Source: Candidatus Omnitrophota bacterium
GTDB taxonomy: Bacteria; Omnitrophota; Omnitrophia; Omnitrophales; Aquincolibacteriaceae
Direction: 5' to 3'
DNA length: 64,000 bases
NCBI GenBank assembly: GCA_903819565.1
Contig: CAIJDY010000030.1
Coordinates: 7,128 to 71,127 of the forward strand
The position numbers and the translations under genes are program-made. Position 1 is the first letter of the stretch, and each line of letters begins with the position of its first letter. The notes beneath the pieces are model-generated. The model was not told where the DNA came from, searched no databases, and was given only the letters and a program-made list of their open reading frames with translations. Shown in pieces: positions 1 through 12,769 of the stretch.

Positions 1-293
1 CTATTTTCTTTTCATTAATGGCGACTTGGACTGTCCTGACATCATTAATCAATGAACGAGAGTCAGGGCTGCAAACCCATAAAATTTAATGTGATGCAGT
101 ACTAGAAGCCTACTGATTTTATACGGGAAATCAAATAGAATGTGCCAACGGCTCGGACACGGGGTTCGTTCCTCGGGACTCGAAACGTTTCTTTTTATTG
201 TGTTATGCCGGACTTGATCCGGCATCCAAAATTTTCCTGAGGAATAACAGATTCCGGGTCACGGCCTAGAATGACAAAGTAAATGAATAGGTT

Positions 294-1529
294 ATGGCGA
301 AAAATAGTTTTCTGAAAAATTATTCCTTTTCCCTTCTCCTGATCGCTTCCATTGCGGCGGGCGCGGGGCTGGGAGTTCTCCTTCAGGGAAAAGCGGCGGC
401 CCTGAAGCCGTTCGGGGATATTTTCCTGAATCTTCTTTTTACGGCCGTCGTGCCGCTTGTCTTCTTTTCGATCTCGTCGGCAATCGCCGAGATGTCCGAT
501 CTCCACCGGCTCGGAAAGATCATGGGCTGGATGATCTTTCTTTTTATCATGACGGGCGTTCTTTCAGCCTCGCTCATGGTCATGGGAGTGAAGTTTTACC
601 CGCCGGTCCTGACGGGGCAACCGCTGTTGCCGCTCCCGGAAGCCGTCCGCCAAAGCCTGACCAGCGCCGAGTGGGTCAGCGCTTTCACGGTGCCGGATTT
701 CTTTAATCTTCTTTCGAAGCAGAACATGCTGGCCCTGATCGTTTTTTCCATGCTGGTCGGTCTCGGGGCCTCCCTGGCGCGCGAAGAGGGCAAGCCTTTC
801 GTCCATTTTCTCGTTTCGGGCAACAAGGTCATGATGAAAGTGATCCATTTGATCATGTTCTACGCGCCGGTCGGACTCGGCGCTTACTTTGCCTTTCTTA
901 CGGGGGTTTTCGGGCCCAGTCTCTTGGGTTCGTACCTGCGGGTCGTGACGCTTTATTACCCGCTCTCGATCTTGTACTTTGTCATCGGGTTCTCATTTTA
1001 CGCTTTTCTGGCCGGAGGGCTCCCCGCCATAAGGGTTTTTTGGGCGAATATTTTCCCCGCCTCCCTGACTGCGCTCGGGACGGGAAGCAGCCTCGCAACG
1101 ATACCGTCCAATCTCGAAGCCGCGGACAGGATCGGAGTTTCGCGGGATATTTCCAAGATCGTGATCCCGATCGGAGCGACGATCCACATGGACGGCACTT
1201 GCATTTCGGCGGTTGTGAAGATCGCGCTTCTTTTCAGTTTTTTTGGGATGAAATTCGCGGGGGTCGGAACGATCGTTACGGCGATCGGCGTCGCGCTTTT
1301 GAGCGGGATCGTGATGACAGGCATTCCGGGCGGCGGATTTTTGGGTGAGCTTCTGATTGTGACACTTTATGGATTTCCGCCCGCGGCGCTTCCGCTGATC
1401 TCCATGGTGGGGACGCTCGTGGATCCCCCCGCGACCATGGTGAACGCGATCGGCAGCAACGTGGTTAGCATGCTCATCGCCCGCATCCTCGGCGGGAATA
1501 AATGGATGAAGCAGGAGCTTGAGCGCTAG
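294..1529 (+). CDS. Dicarboxylate/amino acid:cation symporter (DAACS/SDF family, GltP/DctA-like)
   Basis: 411 aa polytopic membrane protein; N-terminal TM segment and overall hydrophobic profile typical of the sodium:dicarboxylate symporter family; ORF-track translation uninterrupted. Confidence 0.75.
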   Translation: MAKNSFLKNYSFSLLLIASIAAGAGLGVLLQGKAAALKPFGDIFLNLLFTAVVPLVFFSISSAIAEMSDLHRLGKIMGWMIFLFIMTGVLSASLMVMGVKFYPPVLTGQPLLPLPEAVRQSLTSAEWVSAFTVPDFFNLLSKQNMLALIVFSMLVGLGASLAREEGKPFVHFLVSGNKVMMKVIHLIMFYAPVGLGAYFAFLTGVFGPSLLGSYLRVVTLYYPLSILYFVIGFSFYAFLAGGLPAIRVFWANIFPASLTALGTGSSLATIPSNLEAADRIGVSRDISKIVIPIGATIHMDGTCISAVVKIALLFSFFGMKFAGVGTIVTAIGVALLSGIVMTGIPGGGFLGELLIVTLYGFPPAALPLISMVGTLVDPPATMVNAIGSNVVSMLIARILGGNKWMKQELER

Positions 1530-1771
1530 CCGCTGTTCAAATCGATGTCGCGGGTTCGTTCTTTCCGCAGTGTGATTAGTTTATTCGTGACGACGCGCCT
1601 CTTTTGCTGTAATATGCACCGATGCTTATATGAGAATATACCCATATATCTCATGAGACGGAATGTTTAAGACAGGGGTCATGCCGGTTTCCGTTAATAG
1701 CCAGGGCTTAATCATCCTAAATGAAGCATGGCCTCCTTTTAACAAACTCTATTTATTAGAAGGAGAGAGCT

Positions 1772-3436
1772 GTGTTTTCCCCAAAGCTGGCGACATGCCT
1801 TAAAGATTATTCCAAGGAGAAATTTTTCACGGATTGTATCGCGGGATTCATCGTCGGAGTTGTCGCGATCCCTTTGGCGATCGCTTTCGCGATCGCTTCC
1901 GGAGTGTCTCCGGACAAAGGTCTTTTTACGGCGATCATCGCCGGATTCCTCGTTTCCGCGCTGGGCGGGAGCCGGGTGCAGATCGGCGGGCCGACGGGCG
2001 CTTTTGTGGTCATTGTTTACGGTATTGTCCAGAAATACGGGATTGACGGACTGATTCTCGCGACGTTGATGGCGGGTATTATGCTTGTGGTCATGGGGAT
2101 CGCGAAACTCGGAACGGCGATCAAGTTCATGCCACATTCCGTGATCGTCGGGTTCACCAGCGGCATCGCGGTGATCATCTTTTCATCCCAGGTGAAGGAT
2201 TTCCTGGGTCTGAGTATTGAAAAAGTGCCGGCGGAATTTGTGGAAAAGTGGCACATCTTTTTTCAGCATTTGGGCACGGTGAATTACGTTGCGTTGTTGT
2301 TGGGCCTGGCCACGGTCTTGATCATTTCCGTGACTCCCAAATTTTCCAAAAGGGTTCCGGGCGCGCTTGTGGCCCTTATCGTCGTGACCGTTTTCGCGGC
2401 CGTGTTCCGTTTACCCGTCGAGACGATCGGCAGCCGTTTCGGGGAGCTGCCTCACGGCCTGCCCGTGCCGCATTTCCCTCTTCTGAATTTTTTAAAGATC
2501 CGGGAACTTCTTCAGCCGGCCGTGACGATCGCGCTCCTGGGAGCCATCGAGTCCCTGCTGTCCGCCGTAGTCGCGGACGGCATGATCGGGGCTCGACACC
2601 GTCCCAACACCGAGCTGATCGGTCAGGGGATCGCGAACATCGGCTCCGCGCTTTTCGGCGGGATCCCCGCGACGGGAGCGATCGCGAGAACCGTGACCAA
2701 TATTAAGAACGGGGGCAGGACCCCGGTTGCCGGGATCATTCACGCGATCACGGTCCTTCTCATCATGTTATTCTTCGGAGCTTGGGTCAAATTCGTGCCC
2801 CTGGCTTGTCTGGCGGGGATTCTCGTCGTGGTCGCGTACCATATGAGCGAATGGCGGTCTTTCCGCGAGCTGCTCAAAGGCTCCCGCGGCGGAAGGATCG
2901 TCCTGGGCATGACGTTCCTTTTGACGATCTTCGTGGACCTGAACGTTGCCATTGAGATCGGGGTGGTGCTGGCGGCATTCCTCTTCATGAAGCGGATGTC
3001 CGAGATAACGGATGTGAAGGTTTTTGCCCGGGAATATGAAGAAGACGAGAAAATGGAGCGGGGAGAGGATCGGCCCTTATCGGCCTTTTCACTTCCTCCG
3101 AAAGTCGAGGTTTACGAGATCAACGGCCCGCTTTTCTTTGGGGCCGCCAACAGCTTTGATGAGGCCGAGAGAGAGATCTCCGGAAAACGCAAGGTGCGGA
3201 TCCTGCGTTTCCGGGACGTGCCTTTGATCGATTCGACCGGCATGCACGCGCTGAAGGGTTTTTATAATAAGACCAAGCGGGAAGGCATCCGTCTTGTGAT
3301 GACCGGACTCCATGTCCAGCCGCTGAATGAAATGGTCAAATCGGATCTTTACGACCTGGTCGGCGAAGAGAACGTTTTCGCGAGCATGAAAGAGTCGATC
3401 GCGCGGGCGGAAGAATTGTTGAATGAAAAAAAATAG
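1772..3436 (+). CDS. SulP family anion transporter (sulfate/bicarbonate/dicarboxylate permease type) with C-terminal STAS domain
   Basis: 554 aa; GTG start preceded by AGGAGAG RBS; N-terminal region (…AIPLAIAFAIASGVSP…GGPTGAFVV…) matches SulP/BicA/DauA-type permeases; C-terminal soluble ~130 aa with STAS-like segment (NGPLFFGAANSF…IDSTGMHAL). Confidence 0.85.
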   Translation: MFSPKLATCLKDYSKEKFFTDCIAGFIVGVVAIPLAIAFAIASGVSPDKGLFTAIIAGFLVSALGGSRVQIGGPTGAFVVIVYGIVQKYGIDGLILATLMAGIMLVVMGIAKLGTAIKFMPHSVIVGFTSGIAVIIFSSQVKDFLGLSIEKVPAEFVEKWHIFFQHLGTVNYVALLLGLATVLIISVTPKFSKRVPGALVALIVVTVFAAVFRLPVETIGSRFGELPHGLPVPHFPLLNFLKIRELLQPAVTIALLGAIESLLSAVVADGMIGARHRPNTELIGQGIANIGSALFGGIPATGAIARTVTNIKNGGRTPVAGIIHAITVLLIMLFFGAWVKFVPLACLAGILVVVAYHMSEWRSFRELLKGSRGGRIVLGMTFLLTIFVDLNVAIEIGVVLAAFLFMKRMSEITDVKVFAREYEEDEKMERGEDRPLSAFSLPPKVEVYEINGPLFFGAANSFDEAEREISGKRKVRILRFRDVPLIDSTGMHALKGFYNKTKREGIRLVMTGLHVQPLNEMVKSDLYDLVGEENVFASMKESIARAEELLNEKK

Positions 3437-3803
3437 ATCCAGCGGAGTTTCTACGCGGGAAGGCCCCATGAAAAAAATAGATGACATGGTGTTCAAGATC
3501 AAAGCGGACTTTTTAAAAGCCCTGGCGCATCCGGCCCGTTTGCAGGTCATTGAATACCTCAAAAACGGGGAGGCCAGCGTGGGAAAACTTGTCCAGGCGC
3601 TGGGGATTGAACAGTCAAGCCTGTCGCGGCACTTGGCCACGCTGCGGAACCTCGGGGTCCTGGAGGCGCGCCAGGAAAAGACGAATGTTTACTATAACCT
3701 GCAGGATCATGATATTTTCAAGGTGTTGCGGCCGATCGCCGAGCTCCTCCGGAAAAAACTGAAAAGAAGCGAGAAAATGCTGGAGAGCCTCGGCGAAGAA
3801 TAA
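3423..3803 (+). CDS. ArsR/SmtB family HTH transcriptional regulator (no metal-binding Cys motif evident)
   Basis: HTH segment LKALAHPARLQVIEYLKNGEASVGKLVQALGIEQSSLSRHLATLRNLGVL is typical ArsR-family; start may instead be the internal ATG at 3468 (MKKIDDMVF). The 3' end of the SulP gene overlaps this ORF. Confidence 0.75.
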   Translation: MKKNRSSGVSTREGPMKKIDDMVFKIKADFLKALAHPARLQVIEYLKNGEASVGKLVQALGIEQSSLSRHLATLRNLGVLEARQEKTNVYYNLQDHDIFKVLRPIAELLRKKLKRSEKMLESLGEE

Positions 3804-3819
3804 GAAAGCGGGAAACGCC

Positions 3820-4503
3820 ATGCAATTGACTTTCCGTGAGATAGAAAACGCTTTTGAGGTCGAAGAGAAAACGCTTTATCAGTGGCTCAATGAGCGGGGA
3901 ATGCCGGCGGTCAAGGCCAACGATCAGTACTATTTCAACTCGGTCGAGGTCCTGGAATGGGCGCTCAAGTATAAGGTCCGTCTGACGCTCGGGGCCTTGA
4001 AGCTTTGTGAAAAAAACCGTCCCGGTCAGGATATTTTCACCCCGGCCCTCCTTCGCGGAGGCGTTCATTTCGGGATCAAGGGGGGCCGTCGCGAGGAGAT
4101 CTTCCGGGAAGTTTTGAGCCTCCTGCCGCTTCCAGGCCACATTGACCGTTCTTCTTTAATGGAAATGCTGATCTCCCGTGAACAGGCCGGCACGACCGGC
4201 ATCGGGAACGGGATCGCCATCCCTCACGTCAAACACCCCGTGATCTTTGCCGGCCTCGATCCCGTGATCGGGCTTTTTTTTCTTGAAAAACCGGTCGATT
4301 TTGCCGCCCTTGACGGAGAGCGGGTCCATACGCTGTTCGTGATACTGTCCGGCTCTTTTAAAGGACATTTGTCGCTCCTTTCTCGTTTGGCCTTTTGTCT
4401 GCAACGCGAAAGCGTTCAAGCGGTCCTGTGCCGCCGTTCGAATGCCGAAGATATCCTCGCGACGTTCCAGGTTGCGGAAGCAAAAACCGTGAAGACCTCC
4501 TAA
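3820..4503 (+). CDS. Two-domain regulator: N-terminal excisionase/MerR-type HTH (HTH_17-like) fused to PTS EIIA type-2 (EIIA-Ntr/PtsN-like) domain
   Basis: N-term LTFREIENAFEVEEKTLYQWLNERGMPAVKANDQYYFNSVEVLEW resembles HTH_17 DNA-binding domains; C-term REQAGTTGIGNGIAIPH carries the phosphorylatable His signature of PTS_EIIA_2; stop codon immediately abuts the next ATG (4504). Confidence 0.7.
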   Translation: MQLTFREIENAFEVEEKTLYQWLNERGMPAVKANDQYYFNSVEVLEWALKYKVRLTLGALKLCEKNRPGQDIFTPALLRGGVHFGIKGGRREEIFREVLSLLPLPGHIDRSSLMEMLISREQAGTTGIGNGIAIPHVKHPVIFAGLDPVIGLFFLEKPVDFAALDGERVHTLFVILSGSFKGHLSLLSRLAFCLQRESVQAVLCRRSNAEDILATFQVAEAKTVKTS

Positions 4504-6351
4504 ATGGAAACATTCTTCCGCGGGCCCTGGCAGGTCCCTTTCGGCGAACTCTCACTCAAGGTTGATCCCTTGAGCCTCGTTTTTCTTGTCGCGATCACGA
4601 TCCTTGTCCTGTGCGCCGGGGCATACGGTATCGGGTATATGCGTCCGTATCGAGGAAAGAAACCCTTGGGGATCCACGCCTTTTTTTACGGGGTCCTGGC
4701 GTTGGACCTTGTCCTTATCGTTACCGCCAACAACGCGATCCTTTTCCTGGGGGCGTGGGAGCTCATGACCCTTTCCACGTTTTTTTGTATTATTTTCGAT
4801 GACGAAAAATCCTCGGTGCGTAAGGCCGGATTTATTTATTTGATCGCGTCCCATTGCGCGACGTTTTTTCTTTTCCTGATGTTTTTTTTGATGGCCCGCG
4901 CCGCAGGATCGATGGATTTCGATATCATGGCGCGGACGGGTTTTTCGCCGGTCCTTGCGGGGATCGTTTTTCTCCTGGCGCTGGCCGGTTTCGGGGTCAA
5001 GGCGGGATTCCTCCCGGTGCATATTTGGTTGCCGTATGCCCATCCGGCCTCGCCTTCCCATATCTCCGCTTTGATGTCGGGGATCACGATCAAAATGGGG
5101 ATCTACGGGATCTGTCGCGTGCTGTGGATCATGAAAGTGCTGCCGAATTGGTGCGGGTATGTCCTTTTGATGATCGGCGTGTCCTCCGGCATTATGGGGG
5201 TCTTATACGCCCTCGGGCAGCACGAGTTGAAAAAATTGTTGGCCTATCACAGTATTGAAAATATCGGCATCATTGCGCTCGGGTTGGGTGTGGGATTATT
5301 GGGAAGGAGCCATCAGGTCCCCTTCCTCGCGGTTCTCGGATTCGGCGGAGGTCTCTTGCATGTCCTGAACCACTCGCTTTTCAAAAGCCTTCTTTTTTTT
5401 GGAGCGGGTTCCGTCATCCAAAAGACACACACCGGTGAAATGGACCGTCTCGGAGGCCTGGCCAGGACCTTGCCGGTCACAAGCATCCTTTTCCTGGTGG
5501 GGGCACTCTCGATCTGCGGTCTGCCGCTCTTTAACGGGTTCATCAGCGAATTCATTATTTATTTCGGGCTTTTCCAGGGACTTCTCGGTCTTCCAGTGCA
5601 AGGGGGGATCTTTTGTTCGCTGGGGATCCTTGCGCTGGCGCTTATGGGCGCGCTTGCCCTGGCCTGTTTTTGTAAAGTCTACGGGACCGTTTTTTTGGGT
5701 AAGCCCCGTGTGGATATCAATGGCCCTTTAAAGGATCCCGCGGCGCGGCAGGGGATCCGTGAAGGGACATCGCGGTGGATGCTTGTTCCCATGATGATCC
5801 TGGCGGGGCTCTGCGTCTGGATCGGTCTTGTTCCCCGGACAGCGGCGGGGTTGGCTTTCCGCGGAGGGGCCTACCTGACGCATGTGGATCTTGCCGCGGT
5901 CCCGCTGGGGCAGGTTTTCACGCCCTTGACGATGGTCGTCCGTATCGTCCTTCTGTTCCTCGCGCTCGTTTTGGGATTGATCGTGGTCCGGCGGTTTCTT
6001 TTGGGAGGAACGTCCATGCCAGTCCGGGAAACCTGGAGCTGCGGTTTTTCACAGGTCTCATCGAGATTTCAATACACCTCTGCTTCTTTTGCCCGATCGA
6101 TCGTCGATTTGATGAAAAACGTCCTTTTTTTCCGCCGCTACGGGGGACAGGTCGCGGGCGTTTTCCCGGAGAAAACGTCCTTGGTTTCCTCGGTTCACGA
6201 TGTTTCCGAAGAGATGGTTTACAGGCCCGGGTTGGCTTTGTTAAATTATATTTCCGAAAAACTCGGCCATAGCCGTATCCGTTATACGCAGCTCTACCTG
6301 GTCTACATTCTTCTGTTCCTGATATTTTTACTGGTCTGGAAATTAAAATAA
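4504..6351 (+). CDS. Complex I NuoL / hydrogenase-4 HyfB / MnhA-like antiporter-type membrane subunit
   Basis: 615 aa, ~15 predicted TM; conserved antiporter-subunit motif WLPYAHPASPSHISALMSGITIKMG (cf. [25 protein letters not shown] of NuoL/M/N family). Confidence 0.85.
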   Translation: METFFRGPWQVPFGELSLKVDPLSLVFLVAITILVLCAGAYGIGYMRPYRGKKPLGIHAFFYGVLALDLVLIVTANNAILFLGAWELMTLSTFFCIIFDDEKSSVRKAGFIYLIASHCATFFLFLMFFLMARAAGSMDFDIMARTGFSPVLAGIVFLLALAGFGVKAGFLPVHIWLPYAHPASPSHISALMSGITIKMGIYGICRVLWIMKVLPNWCGYVLLMIGVSSGIMGVLYALGQHELKKLLAYHSIENIGIIALGLGVGLLGRSHQVPFLAVLGFGGGLLHVLNHSLFKSLLFFGAGSVIQKTHTGEMDRLGGLARTLPVTSILFLVGALSICGLPLFNGFISEFIIYFGLFQGLLGLPVQGGIFCSLGILALALMGALALACFCKVYGTVFLGKPRVDINGPLKDPAARQGIREGTSRWMLVPMMILAGLCVWIGLVPRTAAGLAFRGGAYLTHVDLAAVPLGQVFTPLTMVVRIVLLFLALVLGLIVVRRFLLGGTSMPVRETWSCGFSQVSSRFQYTSASFARSIVDLMKNVLFFRRYGGQVAGVFPEKTSLVSSVHDVSEEMVYRPGLALLNYISEKLGHSRIRYTQLYLVYILLFLIFLLVWKLK

Positions 6352-6366
6352 AAAATGAGGTCCTGA

Positions 6367-7302
6367 GTGGATTTTATACTGAACAAGGCATTGCCGGTTT
6401 TGTTCCACTGGGGAGGCGTTTGCCTGTTCGCGCCGTTTTTTCTCGGCGTGATCGCCAGGGTGAAGGCATTTTTTTCAGGAAAAACGGGGCCTTCCGTGTT
6501 CCAGCTTTACTTTGATCTTGCGAAGCTCTTTCGCAAGAAGTGTGTCTACAGCGGCACCGCGACATGGATCTTTCGCGCGGCCCCCGCGGTGATCCTGGGG
6601 GTCATGCTGACCCTGTCCCTGATGGTCCCTTTCGGCAGATTCAAAGCGCCGGTGCAATTTTCGGGCGATGTCCTGTTGGCGGTCTATCTTCTGGCTGTAG
6701 GCAGATTTTTCATGATCCTCGCGGCCCTGGACACGGGGTCCAGTTTTGAAGGTATGGGGGCCAGCCGTGAAGCGTTCTTCTCGTGCCTGTCGGAATTGGC
6801 GCTCTTCATGAATTTCATCGTGCTGGCGCTGCTGGCCAAGAGCATTTCGCTCTCCCAGATGATCGGCGCGAATATCCCGATGTCCTGGGGAGGCATGGAA
6901 CCGGTGTTACTTCTGGTCGTGGTGAGTTTTTTCATCGTGCTTCTGGCGGAAAATTGCCGCATTCCGATAGACGATCCGGAGACCCACCTGGAACTGACGA
7001 TGATCCATGAGGTGATGATCCTGGACCACAGCGGCGTTGATCTGGCTTTCATGCTTCACGCCGCGGCAATGAAATTTTTTATTTTTTCCGGGATCCTTGT
7101 TTCCATCATCATCCCGGTGCGGACCGGGAACGCGGTGATGGACATGGCGATCTTTTTCGGCGGGATGCTGGGCCTGGCGGTCCTGGTGGGGGTCGTGGAG
7201 TCCACCACCGCTCGTTTCCGCCTTAACCGGGTAAGGCTCCTGTTGCTGATCTCGTTCGCGCTGGCATTTTTCGGTCTCATCGTAACGTTGTGGAGGGCCT
7301 GA
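6367..7302 (+). CDS. NuoH / HycD / HyfC-like membrane subunit of complex I / formate hydrogenlyase-type modules
   Basis: 311 aa; GTG start with GAGG RBS; N-term …FFLGVIARVKAFFSGKTGPSVFQLYFDLAKLFRKK…ATWIFRAAP… parallels HycD/NuoH conserved N-terminal region. Confidence 0.8.
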   Translation: MDFILNKALPVLFHWGGVCLFAPFFLGVIARVKAFFSGKTGPSVFQLYFDLAKLFRKKCVYSGTATWIFRAAPAVILGVMLTLSLMVPFGRFKAPVQFSGDVLLAVYLLAVGRFFMILAALDTGSSFEGMGASREAFFSCLSELALFMNFIVLALLAKSISLSQMIGANIPMSWGGMEPVLLLVVVSFFIVLLAENCRIPIDDPETHLELTMIHEVMILDHSGVDLAFMLHAAAMKFFIFSGILVSIIIPVRTGNAVMDMAIFFGGMLGLAVLVGVVESTTARFRLNRVRLLLLISFALAFFGLIVTLWRA

Positions 7303-7306
7303 GGGC

Positions 7307-7963
7307 ATGATGTCCTTGATCGATGTGTGTTGTATCCTGGCCGTGTTTCTGGCGCTGACGGTCCTGGCGACGCACCGTATTGTGGGAATGATCAAGCTCT
7401 TTGCGTTGCAATCCTTTTTCCTGAGCCTTGTGCCGCTGTTCCTGCACGCGGAGGCTCTTTCGGGCCGCGACCTCATGCTTTCTCTCGTGACGATGGTGCT
7501 CAAGGCCGCGTTGGTTCCTGCGATCCTCTTCTGGACGATCCGGCACATCTCGATGCGTTCCGAGATCAAACCAATCCTCGGGTTCGGGGCCTCGATCCTT
7601 TGCGGCGCGGCGTTGATCGCGGTCGCTTTCTGGATCTCCTTGTCTTTACGGTTGCCCGGAAAGCTGACCTCGAGCCTGGTCCTGCCGTGCTCGCTGGCGA
7701 CGATGCTGTTAGGTTTTATGACCATGGTGACCCGGACGCGTGCCATGACCCAGGTCTTGGGCTACATGGTGATCGAGAACGGGATTTTTCTTTTCGCGCT
7801 GTCGCTTTTTGACGCCATGCCGCTGCTCATTGAAATGGGCATCCTGCTGGATATTTTTGTCGCGGTCTTTATCATGGCCATCGTGCTCAATCACATCAAC
7901 GAGGAGTTCGAAAGGACCCGGGGCTCCGCGGTGAGCCGGCCTAAATGGGGGGAAAGTCAGTGA
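7307..7963 (+). CDS. Small polytopic membrane subunit, HyfE / NuoK / MnhC-like
   Basis: 218 aa, ~6 TM, sits between NuoH-like and NuoN-like genes as hyfE does in hyf operons; GGAGGG RBS; family call by position and size. Confidence 0.5.
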   Translation: MMSLIDVCCILAVFLALTVLATHRIVGMIKLFALQSFFLSLVPLFLHAEALSGRDLMLSLVTMVLKAALVPAILFWTIRHISMRSEIKPILGFGASILCGAALIAVAFWISLSLRLPGKLTSSLVLPCSLATMLLGFMTMVTRTRAMTQVLGYMVIENGIFLFALSLFDAMPLLIEMGILLDIFVAVFIMAIVLNHINEEFERTRGSAVSRPKWGESQ

Positions 7964-9375
7964 TCCTGTCCTTTTTGATCGCGATCCCGTTTATGGGAGC
8001 CCTGGCCGTATTGCTGCCGGTGAGGCCTCTGTTCAGACGGTGGTTTTTTTGGGCGGTGTCTCTCACGCATGCCTTGATCGTGACTTTTTTCTGGGCGCTG
8101 CGGCCGGCTCCGGAATGGCAGGGGTATCTGGTGCTGGACCCCCTAGGGCTTATCCTGCTCTCGGTGATAAGCCTTCTCTTTCTGGCCGTGTCTTTTTTCA
8201 TGATCGGTTATTTCCAGTATGAACAAAGGGGTAACCGGATATTCACGGCGTGTCTCTTGGCGCTTCTGTCCATGATGACGCTGGTTTCGGTGAGCTATCA
8301 CATGGGGCTTTTGTGGGTGGCAATAGAGACGACGACGCTTTTCAGCGCCCCTTTGATCGCTTTCCATCGTGATTGGAAAAGTCTGGAAGCCACCTGGAAG
8401 TACTTGCTGGTCTGTTCCGTGGGGATCGCTTTGGCGCTGATGGGGACCTTTTTCCTTGCGATCGCGGCTCACGATACGCACACGCTCCTTCTGCCGGCGA
8501 TCCTGAGCGCGGCGCCTTCACTTTCCGTCAATTGGCTGAAACTGAGCGTTATTTTCCTGTTCGTCGGCTACGGTTGCAAGATGGGACTTGCCCCGATGCA
8601 TAGCTGGAAGCCGGAAGCTTACGGCCAGGCGACCGGCATGGTGGTGGTTTTGATGGCCGGGGGCCTGACGCAGTGTTCTTTTTTGGCGCTCATGCGGGTG
8701 AGTCAGATCTGCTACAAGACAGGATTAAGCGATTTTTACGCTTCCATTCTGATCGTGACCGGGATCCTGTCGCTCGTGGTTCCGGCGGTACTTTTGTTGA
8801 GCGAGAAAAACATTAAAAGGTCGTTCGCTTTTTCCTCCGTCGAGCACATGGGGATCCTGGTCCTGGGGCTCGGGTTGGGAGGGCTCGGGATCTTTGGCGC
8901 CTTATTTCATATGGTCAATAACGCCCTGGCAAAGGTGGTGATGTTCCTTACGGCCGGGTCCATCGCCCAGAAATACGGGTCTTCCCGCGTCGAGGACGTG
9001 CGGGGGATCATCCACACCTATCCCATGACGGGCATTTTTTTGATCGTCTCGCTGTTTGCCGGGACGGGGATGTTCCCCTTCGCGACGTTCCATAGCGAAC
9101 TGTTGATACTCAACGCTTCGATCATTTCAAAGCACTACCTGTTGGCAGGGAGCTTCGTCCTGTGTCTGGCCGTTATTTTTATCGGAATGGCCAGGATCGT
9201 TTTGGCGTTCGTCTATGGCCAACCGACGGAACCGGTCCTGGCTAAAAAGGAAAATTTCTTTATGAATACGACCATCGTGGTTGCCGCGGTCGTCTTGCTG
9301 GGAGTTGGCTTGTGGATGCCGGTTTCCTTGAACAGGGCGCTCCACGAAGCGGTGACGTTGATCGGGGCGTCTTAA
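7945..9375 (+). CDS. NuoN/NuoM / HyfF-like antiporter-type membrane subunit
   Basis: 476 aa, ~13 TM, proton-pumping antiporter-like subunit profile; overlaps upstream gene (alternative GTG at 7960 gives GTGA start/stop overlap, suggesting translational coupling). Confidence 0.8.
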   Translation: MGGKSVILSFLIAIPFMGALAVLLPVRPLFRRWFFWAVSLTHALIVTFFWALRPAPEWQGYLVLDPLGLILLSVISLLFLAVSFFMIGYFQYEQRGNRIFTACLLALLSMMTLVSVSYHMGLLWVAIETTTLFSAPLIAFHRDWKSLEATWKYLLVCSVGIALALMGTFFLAIAAHDTHTLLLPAILSAAPSLSVNWLKLSVIFLFVGYGCKMGLAPMHSWKPEAYGQATGMVVVLMAGGLTQCSFLALMRVSQICYKTGLSDFYASILIVTGILSLVVPAVLLLSEKNIKRSFAFSSVEHMGILVLGLGLGGLGIFGALFHMVNNALAKVVMFLTAGSIAQKYGSSRVEDVRGIIHTYPMTGIFLIVSLFAGTGMFPFATFHSELLILNASIISKHYLLAGSFVLCLAVIFIGMARIVLAFVYGQPTEPVLAKKENFFMNTTIVVAAVVLLGVGLWMPVSLNRALHEAVTLIGAS

Positions 9376-9442
9376 TTCTTGTTTAAAAATTTACAGTGAA
9401 TTGGGGCGTAAACAAGGCCCGGTTTGGAACGAATGAGGACTT

Positions 9443-10957
9443 ATGGAATTGTTTAATGGCGGCAACATTTCTTTAAAAGATATCCCGGTTTTAGCGGAAA
9501 AAGAATTCCGCGAAGAAGTGATTCTTCGCTGCCGGGAGGACGCGCGGCTGATGAACTTTTTCGGATGCGCGGAGGACGGGGGCGACGTCCGCTTGATCGT
9601 GATCCTGGGACTCAGCGAAGAGTCTTTGTTGCGGGTGTTTGCGACAAAAATTCCGGCGGGATCTCCCCGTTATCAATCGTTGACCAGGGAGCTACCTCAA
9701 GCGCAATTATTCGAACGCGAGATCGCGGAGCAGTGGGCGGTCACCCCCGAAGGGCACCCTTGGCTTAAACCGGTGAGGTATCACGCGAATTACCGCGGCG
9801 TGCCGGACCTTTGGAAGGATGTCGCGCGGCAGACGATCCCGGGATCTTATCCTTTTTATGCCGTGGGCGGCGAGGAGGTCCATGAAGTGGGTGTGGGGCC
9901 GGTGCATGCCGGTATTATCGAGCCCGGACATTTCCGGTTCCAGTGTCACGGGGAAGAGGTGCTGCATCTGGAGATCCAATTGGGATACCAGCATCGCGGT
10001 ATCGAGCCCCTAATGGGCGTGGGAAAAGATCTGAAACGGGGAGTTCTTTTAAGCGAGTCCATTGCCGGGGACACTTCGATCGGTCATTCTACGGCGTATT
10101 GCGAGGCGATCGAATCGCTGGCGGGTTGCGCGGTTCCGCTGAGGGCGCAGGCCCTCCGCGCGGTGACGCTGGAGCTGGAACGGCTGGCGAATCACGTGGG
10201 CGACCTGGGCGCTTTGGGGATGGATGCCGGTTTTCTGCCGACCAGCGCGTATTTCGGCCGCATGCGTGGGGATTACTTGAATCTATTGCTGGAACTGACG
10301 GGAAACCGTTTTGGGAAGGGACTCTGCCGGCCGGGAGGTGTCCTTTTTGATATGGATACTGCCATGGCCGAAGATTTCTGCCGGAAACTGAAGCGCTATA
10401 AAAAAGAATTCGAAGAAGTAAGCGATCTTTTTTTCACCCGTCCGTCGGTCCTTGCGCGTTTTGAAGGTATCGGGATTCTTCCCCTGAAGACCGCGAAAGA
10501 CCTGGGGGTGGTGGGTCCCGTTGCGCGCGCGAGCCAGTCGGAGCAGGATGTGCGTATCGATTATTCCTCCGGGATATGGCAATTCTATCATGTGCCCATT
10601 TCTCTGGCCGCGACCGGGGACGTTTACGCGCGGGCTCTGGTGCGGCGGCAGGAAGTGATGCGCTCGCTGGAATTCTTGCTGAAACTTTTGCCGTCTTTAC
10701 CCAAAGGGGATATCAGAGCCCCCCTCGGTCCTTTAAAGCCGGAGAGGCTTGCGGTCTCTCTGGTAGAGGGATGGCGCGGCGAGATCATGCATGTCGGTAT
10801 GACCGACGGCCAGGGCGCCTTGTCCCGATACAAGATCAAAGATCCCTCGTTTCACAATTGGTTCGCATTGACCCACGCGATGCGCAATCAGGAAATATCT
10901 GATTTTCCGTTATGCAATAAAAGCTTCAATTTGTCCTATTGCGGGCATGATCTATGA
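9443..10957 (+). CDS. Fused NuoC-NuoD / HycE-like large subunit of a group-4 [NiFe]-hydrogenase-related complex; canonical Ni-Fe Cys ligands apparently absent
   Basis: 504 aa; N-terminal ~120 aa NuoC(30 kDa)-like, remainder NuoD/HycE-like (…HRGIEPLMG…GHSTAYCEAIE…RGDYLN…). Where HycE/EchE have the L1 motif R-x-C-G-I-C-x-x-x-H the sequence reads SIAGDTSIGH; the C-terminal DPCxxCxxR position reads NLSYCGHD (Cys offset, spacing broken). Confidence 0.8.
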   Translation: MELFNGGNISLKDIPVLAEKEFREEVILRCREDARLMNFFGCAEDGGDVRLIVILGLSEESLLRVFATKIPAGSPRYQSLTRELPQAQLFEREIAEQWAVTPEGHPWLKPVRYHANYRGVPDLWKDVARQTIPGSYPFYAVGGEEVHEVGVGPVHAGIIEPGHFRFQCHGEEVLHLEIQLGYQHRGIEPLMGVGKDLKRGVLLSESIAGDTSIGHSTAYCEAIESLAGCAVPLRAQALRAVTLELERLANHVGDLGALGMDAGFLPTSAYFGRMRGDYLNLLLELTGNRFGKGLCRPGGVLFDMDTAMAEDFCRKLKRYKKEFEEVSDLFFTRPSVLARFEGIGILPLKTAKDLGVVGPVARASQSEQDVRIDYSSGIWQFYHVPISLAATGDVYARALVRRQEVMRSLEFLLKLLPSLPKGDIRAPLGPLKPERLAVSLVEGWRGEIMHVGMTDGQGALSRYKIKDPSFHNWFALTHAMRNQEISDFPLCNKSFNLSYCGHDL

Positions 10958-10988
10958 AGCGCTTTGACCGTAGAAGCGGGGAGCCTTT

Positions 10989-11669
10989 ATGCTGAATATT
11001 TTAATGGAGCGTTTAAAACAGGGCCGCCGGACTTTATCCTTTCCCAAGGGGAAGCCCCCGGTCCTGCCGGCGCGTTATCGGGGCCGCCCCATCGTCGCGG
11101 GCCTGAAAGACGGTGTGGACTTGGGGAAGATCACCTTTATCCCCGACAGCGGCATTCAACATTCTAATGATTTTCGTATGGCGGCTTCTCGCCGGGAAGA
11201 TCTCGTTCTTAAGGGTGACGACGCGCACGCTTTGGCACATGCGTTGAATAAGAAGATCTTGGAGATGTTCGGCCGTTCTCTGAAGCTGCGGCAGGTTTCA
11301 GCGGGCGGGTGCAATGCCTGCGAGGCAGACATCAATGTCCTGAATACGCCCGTCTTTGATCTCAGCCGTTTCGGTATTCAATTCGTCGCGTCGCCGCGCC
11401 ATGCCGACGGGATCGTCGTCACGGGTCCCATTTCGCGCAATATGAAAGAAGCGCTTCTGAAAACTCACGAAGCCACACCGGACCCCAAGATCGTTATTGC
11501 GGTCGGTGCTTGCGCGATCTCCGGAGGTATTTTTTCCGAAAGTCCGGAATCTTCCAAGGGGCTGGACACCCTTCTTCCCGTAGACCTTTATATCCCCGGC
11601 TGTCCTCCGCACCCCTTGACCATTCTTGACGGGCTCCTGAGATTGATGGGAAGGCTCAGAAAAGAATGA
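10989..11669 (+). CDS. NuoB / HycG / EchC-like small subunit with intact [4Fe-4S] (N2-type) Cys set
   Basis: 226 aa; …RSLKLRQVSAGGCNACEAD… (CxxC), …AVGACAISGG…, …YIPGCPPHP… correspond to the four Cys of HycG/NuoB-type subunits. Confidence 0.8.
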   Translation: MLNILMERLKQGRRTLSFPKGKPPVLPARYRGRPIVAGLKDGVDLGKITFIPDSGIQHSNDFRMAASRREDLVLKGDDAHALAHALNKKILEMFGRSLKLRQVSAGGCNACEADINVLNTPVFDLSRFGIQFVASPRHADGIVVTGPISRNMKEALLKTHEATPDPKIVIAVGACAISGGIFSESPESSKGLDTLLPVDLYIPGCPPHPLTILDGLLRLMGRLRKE

Positions 11670-11782
11670 ATGGAGGTTTCACCCCGATTCATGTCTTCAG
11701 GAGTTAATTCTTCGCGGTATTTTTCTCGTTTTAGGGAAGGTCTCCACGAAATAGAAAACCAGACCCTGCTTCGTCCGGAGTT

Positions 11783-12259
11783 TTAATGAGAAGCCTGTTC
11801 GCCCGCGTCCGGAGTTTCCGGGGGAGCGACCTGGAGGGGGTTCAGATTGGCGTGGAAGGCCCATTTCCAGCCCTCCGGAGTCTTGATCCAGCCGCTGAGG
11901 CGCATCGCCGCCCGCGTGGGAAGGTCCAGGGGGCCGATGTTCTCTTCGGTCATGACCCGGTAGCTGACAAGAATGAGGGAATCGGTTTGCGTGGTTTTAA
12001 TATAGCTGAGCTCGTACTGGTCAATGTTCAGTTCCTTCAGAAGCGCCATTTCTTCCGCTCCGTTGCGGGCGATATCCTCATGGACGGACTGGAACTCCGG
12101 GGCCATATCTTTTTCGATCTGGGCCCAATTGCCTTCATGAACGTTCTTCCAGAGTTCACGGACAAGCGTTTCGCCCTGGGACATCTCTTCAGCGAAAGTC
12201 GGTGGAACGGAACCCAGTAAAAAGAAAACGAAACAAAGAACGACGAGTTTGTTTCTCAT
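11783..12259 (-). CDS. Secreted NTF2-like / SnoaL-like fold protein (unknown function)
   Basis: Start taken at internal MRNKLVVLCFVFFLLGSVPPTFA (Sec signal peptide); ~135-aa mature domain with W/E-rich pattern typical of NTF2-like (DUF4440/SnoaL-like) proteins; family call tentative. Confidence 0.45.
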   Translation of the reverse strand: MRNKLVVLCFVFFLLGSVPPTFAEEMSQGETLVRELWKNVHEGNWAQIEKDMAPEFQSVHEDIARNGAEEMALLKELNIDQYELSYIKTTQTDSLILVSYRVMTEENIGPLDLPTRAAMRLSGWIKTPEGWKWAFHANLNPLQVAPPETPDAGEQASH

Positions 12260-12298
12260 GGCGTCTCCTTCCATGCGGATCTTCATACCGTCTCAGGG

Positions 12299-12769
12299 TT
12301 AGTCGGACTCTTTCCAGATATCGCCGCGCCGTCCGATCTTAACAACGTCGTTTATCTTGATCTTCAGGATGGCGAATTTCTCCGAGATCTCCACTTCGAA
12401 ATGTTCGTGTTTTTTTCCCGTCCGGACCGCTTCGATCACGCGGTCGGCCGAGAGCTTGACGACTTTTTCATCCCATTCTCTCAACATGGCATCGTAGCTT
12501 TTGCCCCGCTCGATCACTTTTGCGGTCCCGTTCAGGCGGTAGGCCTCCAGAGCGTCCTGTTCCATAAAAGAAACGGAGACGAGGGGGTTCTCTTTGATGT
12601 TGACGACCGTCTGGCCCATGACGTGATCGATCAAATAGAGGGAATCCCTCTTGGCGTGGAGAAAAAGCTTCGGGGCGGAATTCGGCCGGCCGTCACGGGT
12701 GGCGGTGCCGACCGAGACGAACTTTCTTTTTCCGAGTAATTCCTGGATTTTTTCCGTGATCTTGGGCAT
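12299..12769 (-). CDS. Pyridoxamine 5'-phosphate oxidase-like FMN-binding protein (general stress protein 26-like)
   Basis: 156 aa; …FVSVGTATRDGRPNSAPKLFL…LYLIDHVMGQTVVNIKENPLVSVSF… pattern typical of PNPOx split-barrel family. Confidence 0.6.
   Translation of the reverse strand: MPKITEKIQELLGKRKFVSVGTATRDGRPNSAPKLFLHAKRDSLYLIDHVMGQTVVNIKENPLVSVSFMEQDALEAYRLNGTAKVIERGKSYDAMLREWDEKVVKLSADRVIEAVRTGKKHEHFEVEISEKFAILKIKINDVVKIGRRGDIWKESD

Follow-up and report, generated by a model that had tools for sequence, protein, structure and literature searches.

What does a gene do that joins a DNA-binding domain to a phosphotransferase system (PTS) EIIA domain and stands directly in front of a set of membrane-complex genes? 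The question is raised by a 64,000-nucleotide stretch of a Candidatus Omnitrophota genome (contig CAIJDY010000030.1, positions 7,128 to 71,127; hereafter, the window), in which an open reading frame (ORF) at 3820-4503 (ATG start, stop codon included; all window features below are on the plus strand) encodes a 227-amino-acid protein consisting of a winged helix-turn-helix (HTH), a linker and an EIIA(Ntr)-like domain, based on the ORF itself and on Pfam, NCBIfam, AlphaFold2 and Foldseek. Our preferred reading, which we hold with moderate confidence, is that this protein serves the operon that it heads, i.e., the six-gene Ehr (Ech-hydrogenase-related) cluster, as a dedicated one-component regulator that controls its own transcription and is itself controlled by phosphorylation. 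The core idea of an earlier note on this DNA, namely that a regulator of PTS type is linked to the neighboring membrane module, survives the analysis reported here; the facts that it described all hold, and its interpretation is partly supported.

Domains and fold of the regulator

The regulator gene is no chance ORF: it has more than 1000 homologs. Further, both halves of its product are real, because profile, AlphaFold2 and Foldseek matches were obtained for each. The C-terminal half is an EIIA type-2 (Ntr-like) domain (residues 73-220; 4036-4479), as the earlier note had proposed, and is recognized by PTS_EIIA_2 and by structural matches. Specifically, PTS_EIIA_2 (PF00359) matches residues 86-216 with 75.7 bits against a Pfam gathering cut-off of 27, the best NCBIfam match is the PtsN model TIGR01419, followed by a fructose EIIA model (both under cut-off), and the top phmmer matches among PDB sequences are all PtsN/EIIA-Ntr proteins (2a0j, 1a6j, 3urr and 4gqx). 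The histidine of the GIAIPH motif (4210-4227), which had been taken for the phosphorylation site, is His136 (codon CAC, 4225-4227); aligned to 1a6j and 2a0j, it does fall on the position of His73 in the E. coli protein, and it is the predicted phospho-acceptor. In the phmmer alignment, with positions counted along 1a6j, Arg120 (codon CGT, 4177-4179) and His183 (codon CAT, 4366-4368) similarly correspond to PtsN Arg57 and His120. Among 40 diverse family members, H136 and H183 are invariant and R120 is at least 90% conserved; the family alignment also has W47, G80, G131 and P135 invariant and R120 and E121 nearly so. Within the Omnitrophota clade to which the window belongs, H136 is found in 117 of 117 members, H183 is invariant, and R120 occurs in 115 of the 117. 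The strict conservation of these three residues argues for phosphotransfer.

The N-terminal half (residues 1-52; 3820-3975) is a MerR/excisionase-type winged HTH, and the HTH_17-like start that the earlier note described is supported by profile matches to RacA and BldC, AlphaFold2 and Foldseek, with the Pfam score falling just short (below). A precomputed match to PF12728 (HTH_17) is present in most homologs, and the family profile of the N-terminal 56 residues matched RacA (E = 9e-7) and BldC (3e-4) in the PDB, as well as a mycobacteriophage Xis; its matches to lambda Xis and to small subunits of terminases were weak. The full-length AlphaFold2 model, with the 40-sequence family alignment as input, reached a predicted local distance difference test (pLDDT) score of 92.4 and shows a beta-alpha-alpha-beta-beta-alpha winged HTH at residues 2-50, then the linker and then the EIIA fold; the linker is 20 residues long, with residues 61-70 less confident (pLDDT 66). 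Foldseek searches with the full model returned PtsN structures at the top (3urr, 2a0j, 4gqx and 1a6j; TMt about 0.8); EIIA-like domains on the cytoplasmic side of SLC4/Band 3 transporters, including the NDCBE regulatory domain, were more distant matches. The N-terminus modeled alone (pLDDT 87.7) matched RacA-DNA and BldC-DNA complexes, the lambda terminase small subunit, MtaN and SoxR (TM about 0.7), with CadR, BmrR and CbpM (3ucs) also among the fold matches.

The fusion constitutes a large uncharacterised family and is not rare; that is, the claim that it is unusual stands relative to stand-alone PtsN but not otherwise. The 120 best matches of the word-indexed search that gave the homolog count above share at least 69% identity with the regulator and all come from Candidatus Omnitrophota metagenome-assembled genomes, and an exhaustive search against 50%-identity representatives gave 155 clusters with E < 1e-30, almost all of them full length at 220-240 amino acids. 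A Geobacter member used as query gave 4214 clusters at 90% identity (E <= 1e-20). The usual automatic names of the family are "PTS sugar transporter subunit IIA" and "nitrogen regulatory IIA", although the GenBank record of the Geotalea daltonii FRC-32 member (ACM20063.1) reads 'MerR family, PTSIIA domain-containing'; hence, the architecture was already spotted by one annotator.

Linkage of the regulator gene to Ehr clusters

To assess the genomic context of the family, one genome per species was scanned, which gave more than 600 matches; the best 80 loci were kept and, together with two from exact look-ups, made up a set of 82, of which three were on contigs too short to be informative. In 78 of the remaining 79 loci, spanning more than 15 phyla, the start of an Ehr gene lies on the same strand no more than 1.2 kb downstream, and all six Ehr subunit types are present in 59 loci. 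The regulatory tie to the downstream membrane module that the earlier note suggested is strongly supported by this synteny. The phyla and groups, as labeled in the records, include Omnitrophota, Planctomycetota (several classes), Geobacteraceae, Desulfobacteraceae, Desulfatitalea, Lentisphaerae, Victivallales, Verrucomicrobiota, Kiritimatiellae, Hydrogenedentota, Elusimicrobia, Fibrobacteres, Gemmatimonadales, Methylomirabilota, Aminicenantes, Holophagales, Spirochaetota, Binatia, Krumholzibacteriia and Eisenbacteria, and the cultured Geotalea daltonii FRC-32 is among the syntenic genomes. The one exception is an orphan copy (L059), with no Ehr genes within 10 kb. De novo clustering of the neighboring ORFs revealed nothing beyond Ehr that is conserved across phyla; SulP neighbors were found in 12-14 loci (Omnitrophota plus two Gemmatimonadales), and ArsR and malic enzyme genes in six loci each.

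The reverse test started from 80 metagenome loci chosen through the Ehr large subunit (EhrL), 31 of which had enough upstream DNA. The regulator gene stands in front of ehrA in 21 of these 31 clusters and is missing from the other 10; therefore, it is not an obligate companion or subunit of Ehr. Some loci have an insert next to ehrA, on the side of either ehrB or the regulator gene; a potential new partner (e.g., DabA) was considered, but these inserts turned out to be a second EhrA paralog. In one locus (L020), two Ehr clusters lie in tandem (1335-8652 and 8761 onward) with the regulator gene between them.

In the window, the stop codon of the regulator gene abuts the start of the NuoL-like gene, as the earlier note had read it (TAA-ATG, 4501-4506; no intergenic bases). 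What follows was described there as complex-I-like, and this needs correction: based on its gene content and sequence motifs, the module is a six-gene Ehr cluster, neither complex I nor hydrogenase. It comprises ehrA (4504-6351), encoding a 615-amino-acid HyfB/NuoL-like antiporter-type membrane subunit (Proton_antipo_M 176.5 bits; Hydrogenase-4 subunit B model 531 bits, below cut-off); ehrB (6367-7302), a HycD/NuoH-like membrane subunit (NADHdh 112.6 bits); ehrC (7307-7963), a HyfE-like membrane subunit (NCBIfam hydrogenase-4 membrane subunit 88.6 bits, below cut-off); ehrD (7945-9375), a HyfF/NuoN-like antiporter-type subunit (Proton_antipo_M 127.5 bits; HyfF models); ehrL (9443-10957), a large subunit with fused 30-kDa and 49-kDa domains (Pfam) that lacks the NiFe cysteine ligands (HycE alignment); and ehrS (10989-11669), a homolog of NuoB and other small subunits (Oxidored_q6 109.8 bits; NuoB subfamily model 125.6 against a cut-off of 116). 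The EhrS translation has four cysteines in the pattern expected for one [4Fe-4S] cluster. Aligned with E. coli HycE (7z0s_E), EhrL replaces 'RVCGICGFAH' with 'SIAGDTSIGH' and 'DPCYSC' with 'NLSYCG', and the identical replacement of the NiFe motifs was found in EhrL of eight other loci spanning phyla. The Pfam scan within 10 kb detected none of the NuoE/F/G or NuoI/J/K/A families, and a convergent gene lies beyond the six (4504-11669). With the NiFe cysteines missing and only six subunits present, a true hydrogenase or complex I was ruled out.

Ehr was first described in Geobacter in the mid-2000s, is now seen in many phyla, and forms an unexplained branch between group 4 hydrogenases and complex I. 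The Geobacter sulfurreducens complex, encoded by GSU0739-0745 and called of unknown function (PMC7894505, PMC8691401, PMC6349859, PMC10284858), shares with the window the subunit types of the six-gene set and a large subunit without NiFe ligands; the definition of the class followed here was taken from PMC6349859 and PMC7894505. Homologous Ehr clusters were also found in the Geobacteraceae loci and in G. daltonii.

A candidate operator that travels with the gene

The motif T(T/G)GACA(T/A) emerged from k-mer counts on 39 intergenic regions upstream of the gene, and the pattern [TAG][TG]GACA[TA] was subsequently scanned on both strands. Across 60 non-Omnitrophota loci, the 110 nt preceding the gene contain 112 matches vs. 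7.8 expected from the rest of the loci, i.e., a 14-fold enrichment, which remained 14-fold when TTGACA, a possible -35 box, was left out. At least two matches were present in 40 of the 60 loci, and about 24 of the 29 clusters of at least three matches in the 1.3 Mb scanned sit immediately in front of the regulator gene. Matches are most often spaced 10 bp from each other, as a direct or as an inverted pair, and 17-27 bp lie between the two pairs. The composite operator consists of up to four half-sites, two direct copies and then two inverted ones, such as TTGACAAaacGGGACACaaatgagataGTGTCCAccgTTGTCCA in locus L039 and TTGACATtttAGGACATattttttataATGTCCT in locus L032. The operator overlaps promoter elements of the sigma-70 type: the first half-site coincides with the -35 element and a -10-like sequence lies at the operator center; the promoter spacers are an ordinary 17-18 bp, and the operator spans from the -35 to beyond the -10. 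In Geobacteraceae and Desulfobacterota loci, the site is shortened to TTGACA(T)-N21-23-(A)TGTCC, or a sigma-70-like promoter alone is seen.

Since the loci of this first set had themselves supplied the pattern, it was retested on the independent EhrL-chosen set, in which 13 matches in 2.3 kb amount to a 6-fold enrichment (Poisson p about 5e-7); L090, L116, L123 and L127 have clear composite sites. Among eight regulator-less Ehr loci, not one had two or more matches. The operator is retained at the orphan copy (L059). A site that accompanies its gene in this way is a signature of an autoregulated DNA-binding protein, and supports putative DNA binding and autoregulation by the regulator.

Proposed mechanism and alternative explanations

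Under our preferred reading, the regulator would bind the operator as an oligomer and autoregulate the regulator-ehrABCDLS transcript, most simply by promoter occlusion. An HPr/NPr-type protein would phosphorylate His136, the phosphorylation state would alter oligomerisation or DNA affinity, and Ehr expression would thereby be coupled to PTS-sensed carbon/nitrogen or K+ status. Action in trans is suggested by the orphan copy, which has the operator without Ehr nearby. Geobacter and many other bacteria have a regulatory EI-Ntr/NPr relay, and we only infer a PTS input to the regulator, from the conserved residues described above. In the window's Omnitrophota clade, the DNA target of the regulator is probably a different one, since the consensus arginines at HTH positions 21, 38 and 41 are Gln, Tyr and Ser.

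Several observations weigh against this reading. The HTH_17 match of the window protein (25.4 bits, residues 3-50) is 1.6 bits under the gathering cut-off of 27. The first operator enrichment was measured on the loci that had yielded the pattern, and the independent set is clear in only 4-6 of its 21 loci. No operator was found within positions 1-12000 of the window by pattern, position weight matrix (PWM) or cluster scans, nor any operator cluster in about 20 Omnitrophota loci. The window HTH carries R21Q, R38Y and R41S relative to the family consensus (its clade has Q21, K32, Y38 and S41, with Arg as the family consensus at all four positions), and its net charge is -3, with a clade mean of -1.5 vs. 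+0.7 for the rest of the family (range -8 to +5). PROSITE-style signatures and an HPr tblastn (E. coli and B. subtilis queries) detected neither EI nor HPr across the 64 kb of the window or in related loci (~165) totalling ~2.4 Mb, the window between 32 and 64 kb being covered by the motif scan only. Finally, the regulator gene and ehrA abut or overlap in about 36 of 62 loci (-4, -1 or 0 nt from stop to start), and such overlaps are also expected for a stoichiometric partner of the complex.

Some of these points favor the alternative that the regulator works mainly through protein contacts, at least in the Omnitrophota clade, which we consider unlikely. According to this alternative, the protein is translationally coupled to EhrA through the TAA-ATG or ATGA overlaps and docks on Ehr or on the SulP or SDF transporter, phosphorylation gates the activity of its partner, and the HTH serves as a protein-binding module. 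The acidic window HTH with its three lost consensus arginines, and a clade without a recognizable operator, would fit such a role; a protein-binding MerR fold does exist (CbpM, 3ucs, among the fold matches), and stand-alone PtsN works through protein contacts, e.g., with TrkA and KdpD. Against it are the operator that accompanies the gene in most of the family, including the orphan copy that has no Ehr nearby, and the 10 of 31 Ehr clusters that do without the regulator gene. The HTH is also the best-conserved segment of the protein even within the Omnitrophota clade (entropy of 0.51 vs. 0.87 for the EIIA domain; 117 members), although this fits either role. Given both this conservation and the lost arginines, either the DNA specificity of the clade's HTH would have changed or the domain would have been put to another use.

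Alternatively, the regulator may bind DNA while its EIIA-like domain is not phosphorylated and serves instead to sense small molecules or ions or to mediate oligomerisation; the EIIA-like cytoplasmic domains of SLC4/Band 3 anion exchangers likewise belong to no PTS. This alternative appears quite doubtful. The fold does match regulatory domains of Band 3 and NDCBE, none of the approximately 165 loci has a linked EI or HPr gene, and the regulator misses the PtsN equivalog cut-offs (68.1 vs. 138.7 bits for TIGR01419 and 48.9 vs. 221 for NF008145). However, little can be read from absent linkage, because PTS genes do not usually neighbor the targets that they regulate, and the triad and the GxGxAxPH loop are strictly conserved, up to 117 of 117 clade members, which would be difficult to account for without phosphotransfer. 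The idea of an excisionase-like or defence HTH of a mobile element that landed next to Ehr by chance is vanishingly improbable and effectively refuted: HTH_17 is the excisionase family and the MADS MAD1 HTH gives a weak match (27.7 bits vs. a cut-off of 80), but no integrase, att-like repeat or defence genes were found nearby, the position relative to Ehr is fixed in 78 of 79 loci, and the protein ends in an EIIA domain.

Comparison with known systems

With PtsN/EIIA-Ntr (E. coli 1a6j; N. meningitidis 2a0j; Burkholderia 3urr and 4gqx), the regulator has in common the fold (TMt about 0.8), a conserved GxGxAxPH loop and the residues equivalent to Arg57, His73 and His120, but it adds an N-terminal DNA-binding domain (227 amino acids vs. 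~150-160 for the stand-alone protein), falls below the equivalog cut-offs, and is encoded in front of Ehr as opposed to the rpoN-hpf-ptsN arrangement; in addition, PtsN is known to act only through protein contacts. The PRD activators MtlR, LicR and ManR combine a DNA-binding domain with an EIIA type-2 domain, and PTS phosphorylation of their histidines sets their activity, which makes them the nearest functional analogy. They differ in size (~650-700 vs. 227 amino acids), in having PRD and EIIB-like domains where the regulator has only 20 linker residues (no such domain in Pfam at E <= 0.01), and in controlling sugar operons, whereas the regulator has a MerR/excisionase HTH and a membrane energy-conversion complex as its putative target.

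BldC, RacA and Xis provide the best profile and fold matches of the N-terminus. BldC and Xis bind direct repeats head-to-tail, resembling the 10-bp direct pairs of the candidate operator; these proteins have no sensor domain, however, and the operator described here mixes direct and inverted pairs. Classical MerR proteins share the N-terminal winged HTH (MtaN, SoxR, CadR and BmrR matches), but the AlphaFold2 model of the regulator shows neither their long coiled-coil dimerisation helix nor their C-terminal effector pocket, and the spacers of its promoters are 17-18 bp as opposed to 19-20 bp for MerR.

To our knowledge, there is no earlier case of an EIIA-Ntr-type domain as the sensor of a minimal one-component DNA-binding regulator. 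Our literature search found no description of an HTH-EIIA fusion or of a PTS link to Ehr (subscription-only papers were outside the search), nor any mention of an EIIA-type regulator in front of Ehr in the searchable Ehr literature; the near-universal Ehr linkage and the operator of the family appear to be unreported. A dedicated regulator represents a handle on Ehr, with a predicted His-phosphorylation input, a predicted operator, and cultured hosts (Geotalea daltonii FRC-32, G. toluenoxydans and Geobacter sp. AOG1), which together offer a direct route to asking when cells need Ehr. If our reading is true, the regulatory PTS extends well beyond the Proteobacteria, to Omnitrophota, Planctomycetota, Verrucomicrobiota and others.

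The operon of the window and its clade

In the window, the regulator gene has no promoter of its own and belongs to a same-strand run that begins with an SDF-family (DctA/GltP-like) symporter gene (294-1529; SDF 293 bits, weak DctA/GltP model matches), continues with a SulP-STAS anion transporter gene (DauA-like; 1772-3436; Sulfate_transp and STAS, with the DauA model at 520 bits vs. a cut-off of 614) and an ArsR/SmtB-family regulator gene (111 amino acids; 3468-3803; HTH_5 and HTH_metalloreg; 16-nt gap to the regulator gene), and ends with the regulator gene and ehrABCDLS. The clade shows the same tendency: the regulator gene rarely has its own promoter and follows SulP or ArsR by 0-16 nt, and a malic enzyme or CitMHS transporter gene may come first in the operon. 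The intergenic gaps of the window run contain no consensus terminator, and consensus promoter and terminator matches within 1-12500 were not above the shuffled expectation.

The earlier note had also suggested the STAS domain of the adjacent SulP protein as an interaction partner. SulP does lie immediately upstream of the regulator gene or of ArsR in 14 of the 82 loci, confined to Omnitrophota and Gemmatimonadales; the partnership rests on this adjacency alone, and we know of no established EIIA-Ntr/STAS interaction. The 1530-1771 region, i.e., the gap between the SDF and SulP genes, had been proposed as the target for an electrophoretic mobility shift assay, a choice that the data do not favor: the region has no family operator, and a footprint against relatives revealed no conserved block. 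This 242-nt gap does contain two palindromes, TATATGAGAAT/ATACCCATATA at 1627-1648 and CTCCTTTTAACAAA/TTTATTAGAAGGAG at 1733-1765, the latter overlapping the ribosome-binding region of SulP; the two may be an ArsR-type operator or a translational element. The ArsR protein of the window has no cysteine and is probably not a thiol-based sensor, and it may not sense metal; its best specific match, BigR, is far below cut-off. ArsR genes occupy the same position in a few Elusimicrobia/Fibrobacteres loci (L036 and L038).

Several relatives have a strong promoter in common, TTTACA-N17-CATATAAT, which the window lacks. In L004, L009 and L011-L015, the promoter (TTTACA-N17-(C)ATATAAT) lies ~60-110 nt upstream of the first operon gene and is the same whichever gene leads, i.e., SulP, ArsR or the regulator gene. 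Its -35 element, TTTACAT, is one base from the half-site TTGACAT, in a clade with Gln and not Arg at HTH position 21; this may be a coincidence. At the edge of the window (11-56), ~240 nt upstream of the SDF gene, an inverted repeat, TTCATTAATG / CATTAATCAA, encloses TTGGACTGTCCTGACAT, which has three near-matches to the half-site (25-42), all under the PWM threshold. Finally, the closest long relative (L005) has a stand-alone EIIA gene (PTS_EIIA_2 98 bits) and a Usp-domain gene, the two at 6576-7088 and 5784-6563, ~0.8 kb upstream of its SulP-ArsR-regulator-ehr run.

Clues to the role of the Ehr complex

The loci provide a few clues to what Ehr might do, which we regard as leads, not conclusions. 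It is conceivable, though we would not call it probable, that Ehr is an ion- or anion-coupled homeostasis machine (K+/Na+, osmotic, dicarboxylate or inorganic carbon) as opposed to a redox enzyme, and that in the window's clade the regulator may have shifted from binding DNA to gating the complex directly. Four lines of evidence suggest this idea: an EIIA-Ntr-type regulator accompanies Ehr in more than 15 phyla, the same module controlling TrkA and KdpD in proteobacteria; two Omnitrophota operons carry a cyclic di-AMP (c-di-AMP) riboswitch; in Omnitrophota, Ehr shares its transcript with malic enzyme and with transporters of the SulP, CitMHS and SDF types; and DabA/DabB or SulP genes flank regulator-less Ehr clusters. 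Both c-di-AMP and EIIA-Ntr govern K+ and osmotic homeostasis elsewhere.

The two riboswitches (RF00379; 50.8 and 41.7 bits vs. a gathering score of 38) belong to loci of a second Omnitrophota clade. One is located directly before the regulator gene (L016, 2888-3022, plus strand), and the other precedes genes for an ACT-malic enzyme, a CitMHS transporter and SulP, followed by the regulator gene and ehr (L019, 896-1070, plus strand). No other fetched locus has RF00379, and Rfam detected no riboswitch before the operon in the first 12.5 kb of the window or in 15 loci of the window's clade. Regarding the regulator-less clusters, ehrA of L098 is immediately preceded by DabA (PF10070, 662 bits) and two genes of NuoL type (40-4983), and Ehr of L136 by a SulP-STAS gene (2422-4587).

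The EhrL C-terminus (10903-10957), DFPLCNKSFNLSYCGHDL, is almost invariant in nine EhrL proteins from different phyla and keeps two Cys and one His despite the loss of the N-terminal NiFe CxxC motif; these retained residues could mark a different metal or cofactor site. Finally, a c-di-GMP-I riboswitch (RF01051, 54.6 bits) is found a few kb downstream of Ehr on the opposite strand in L008 (20239-20331, minus strand).

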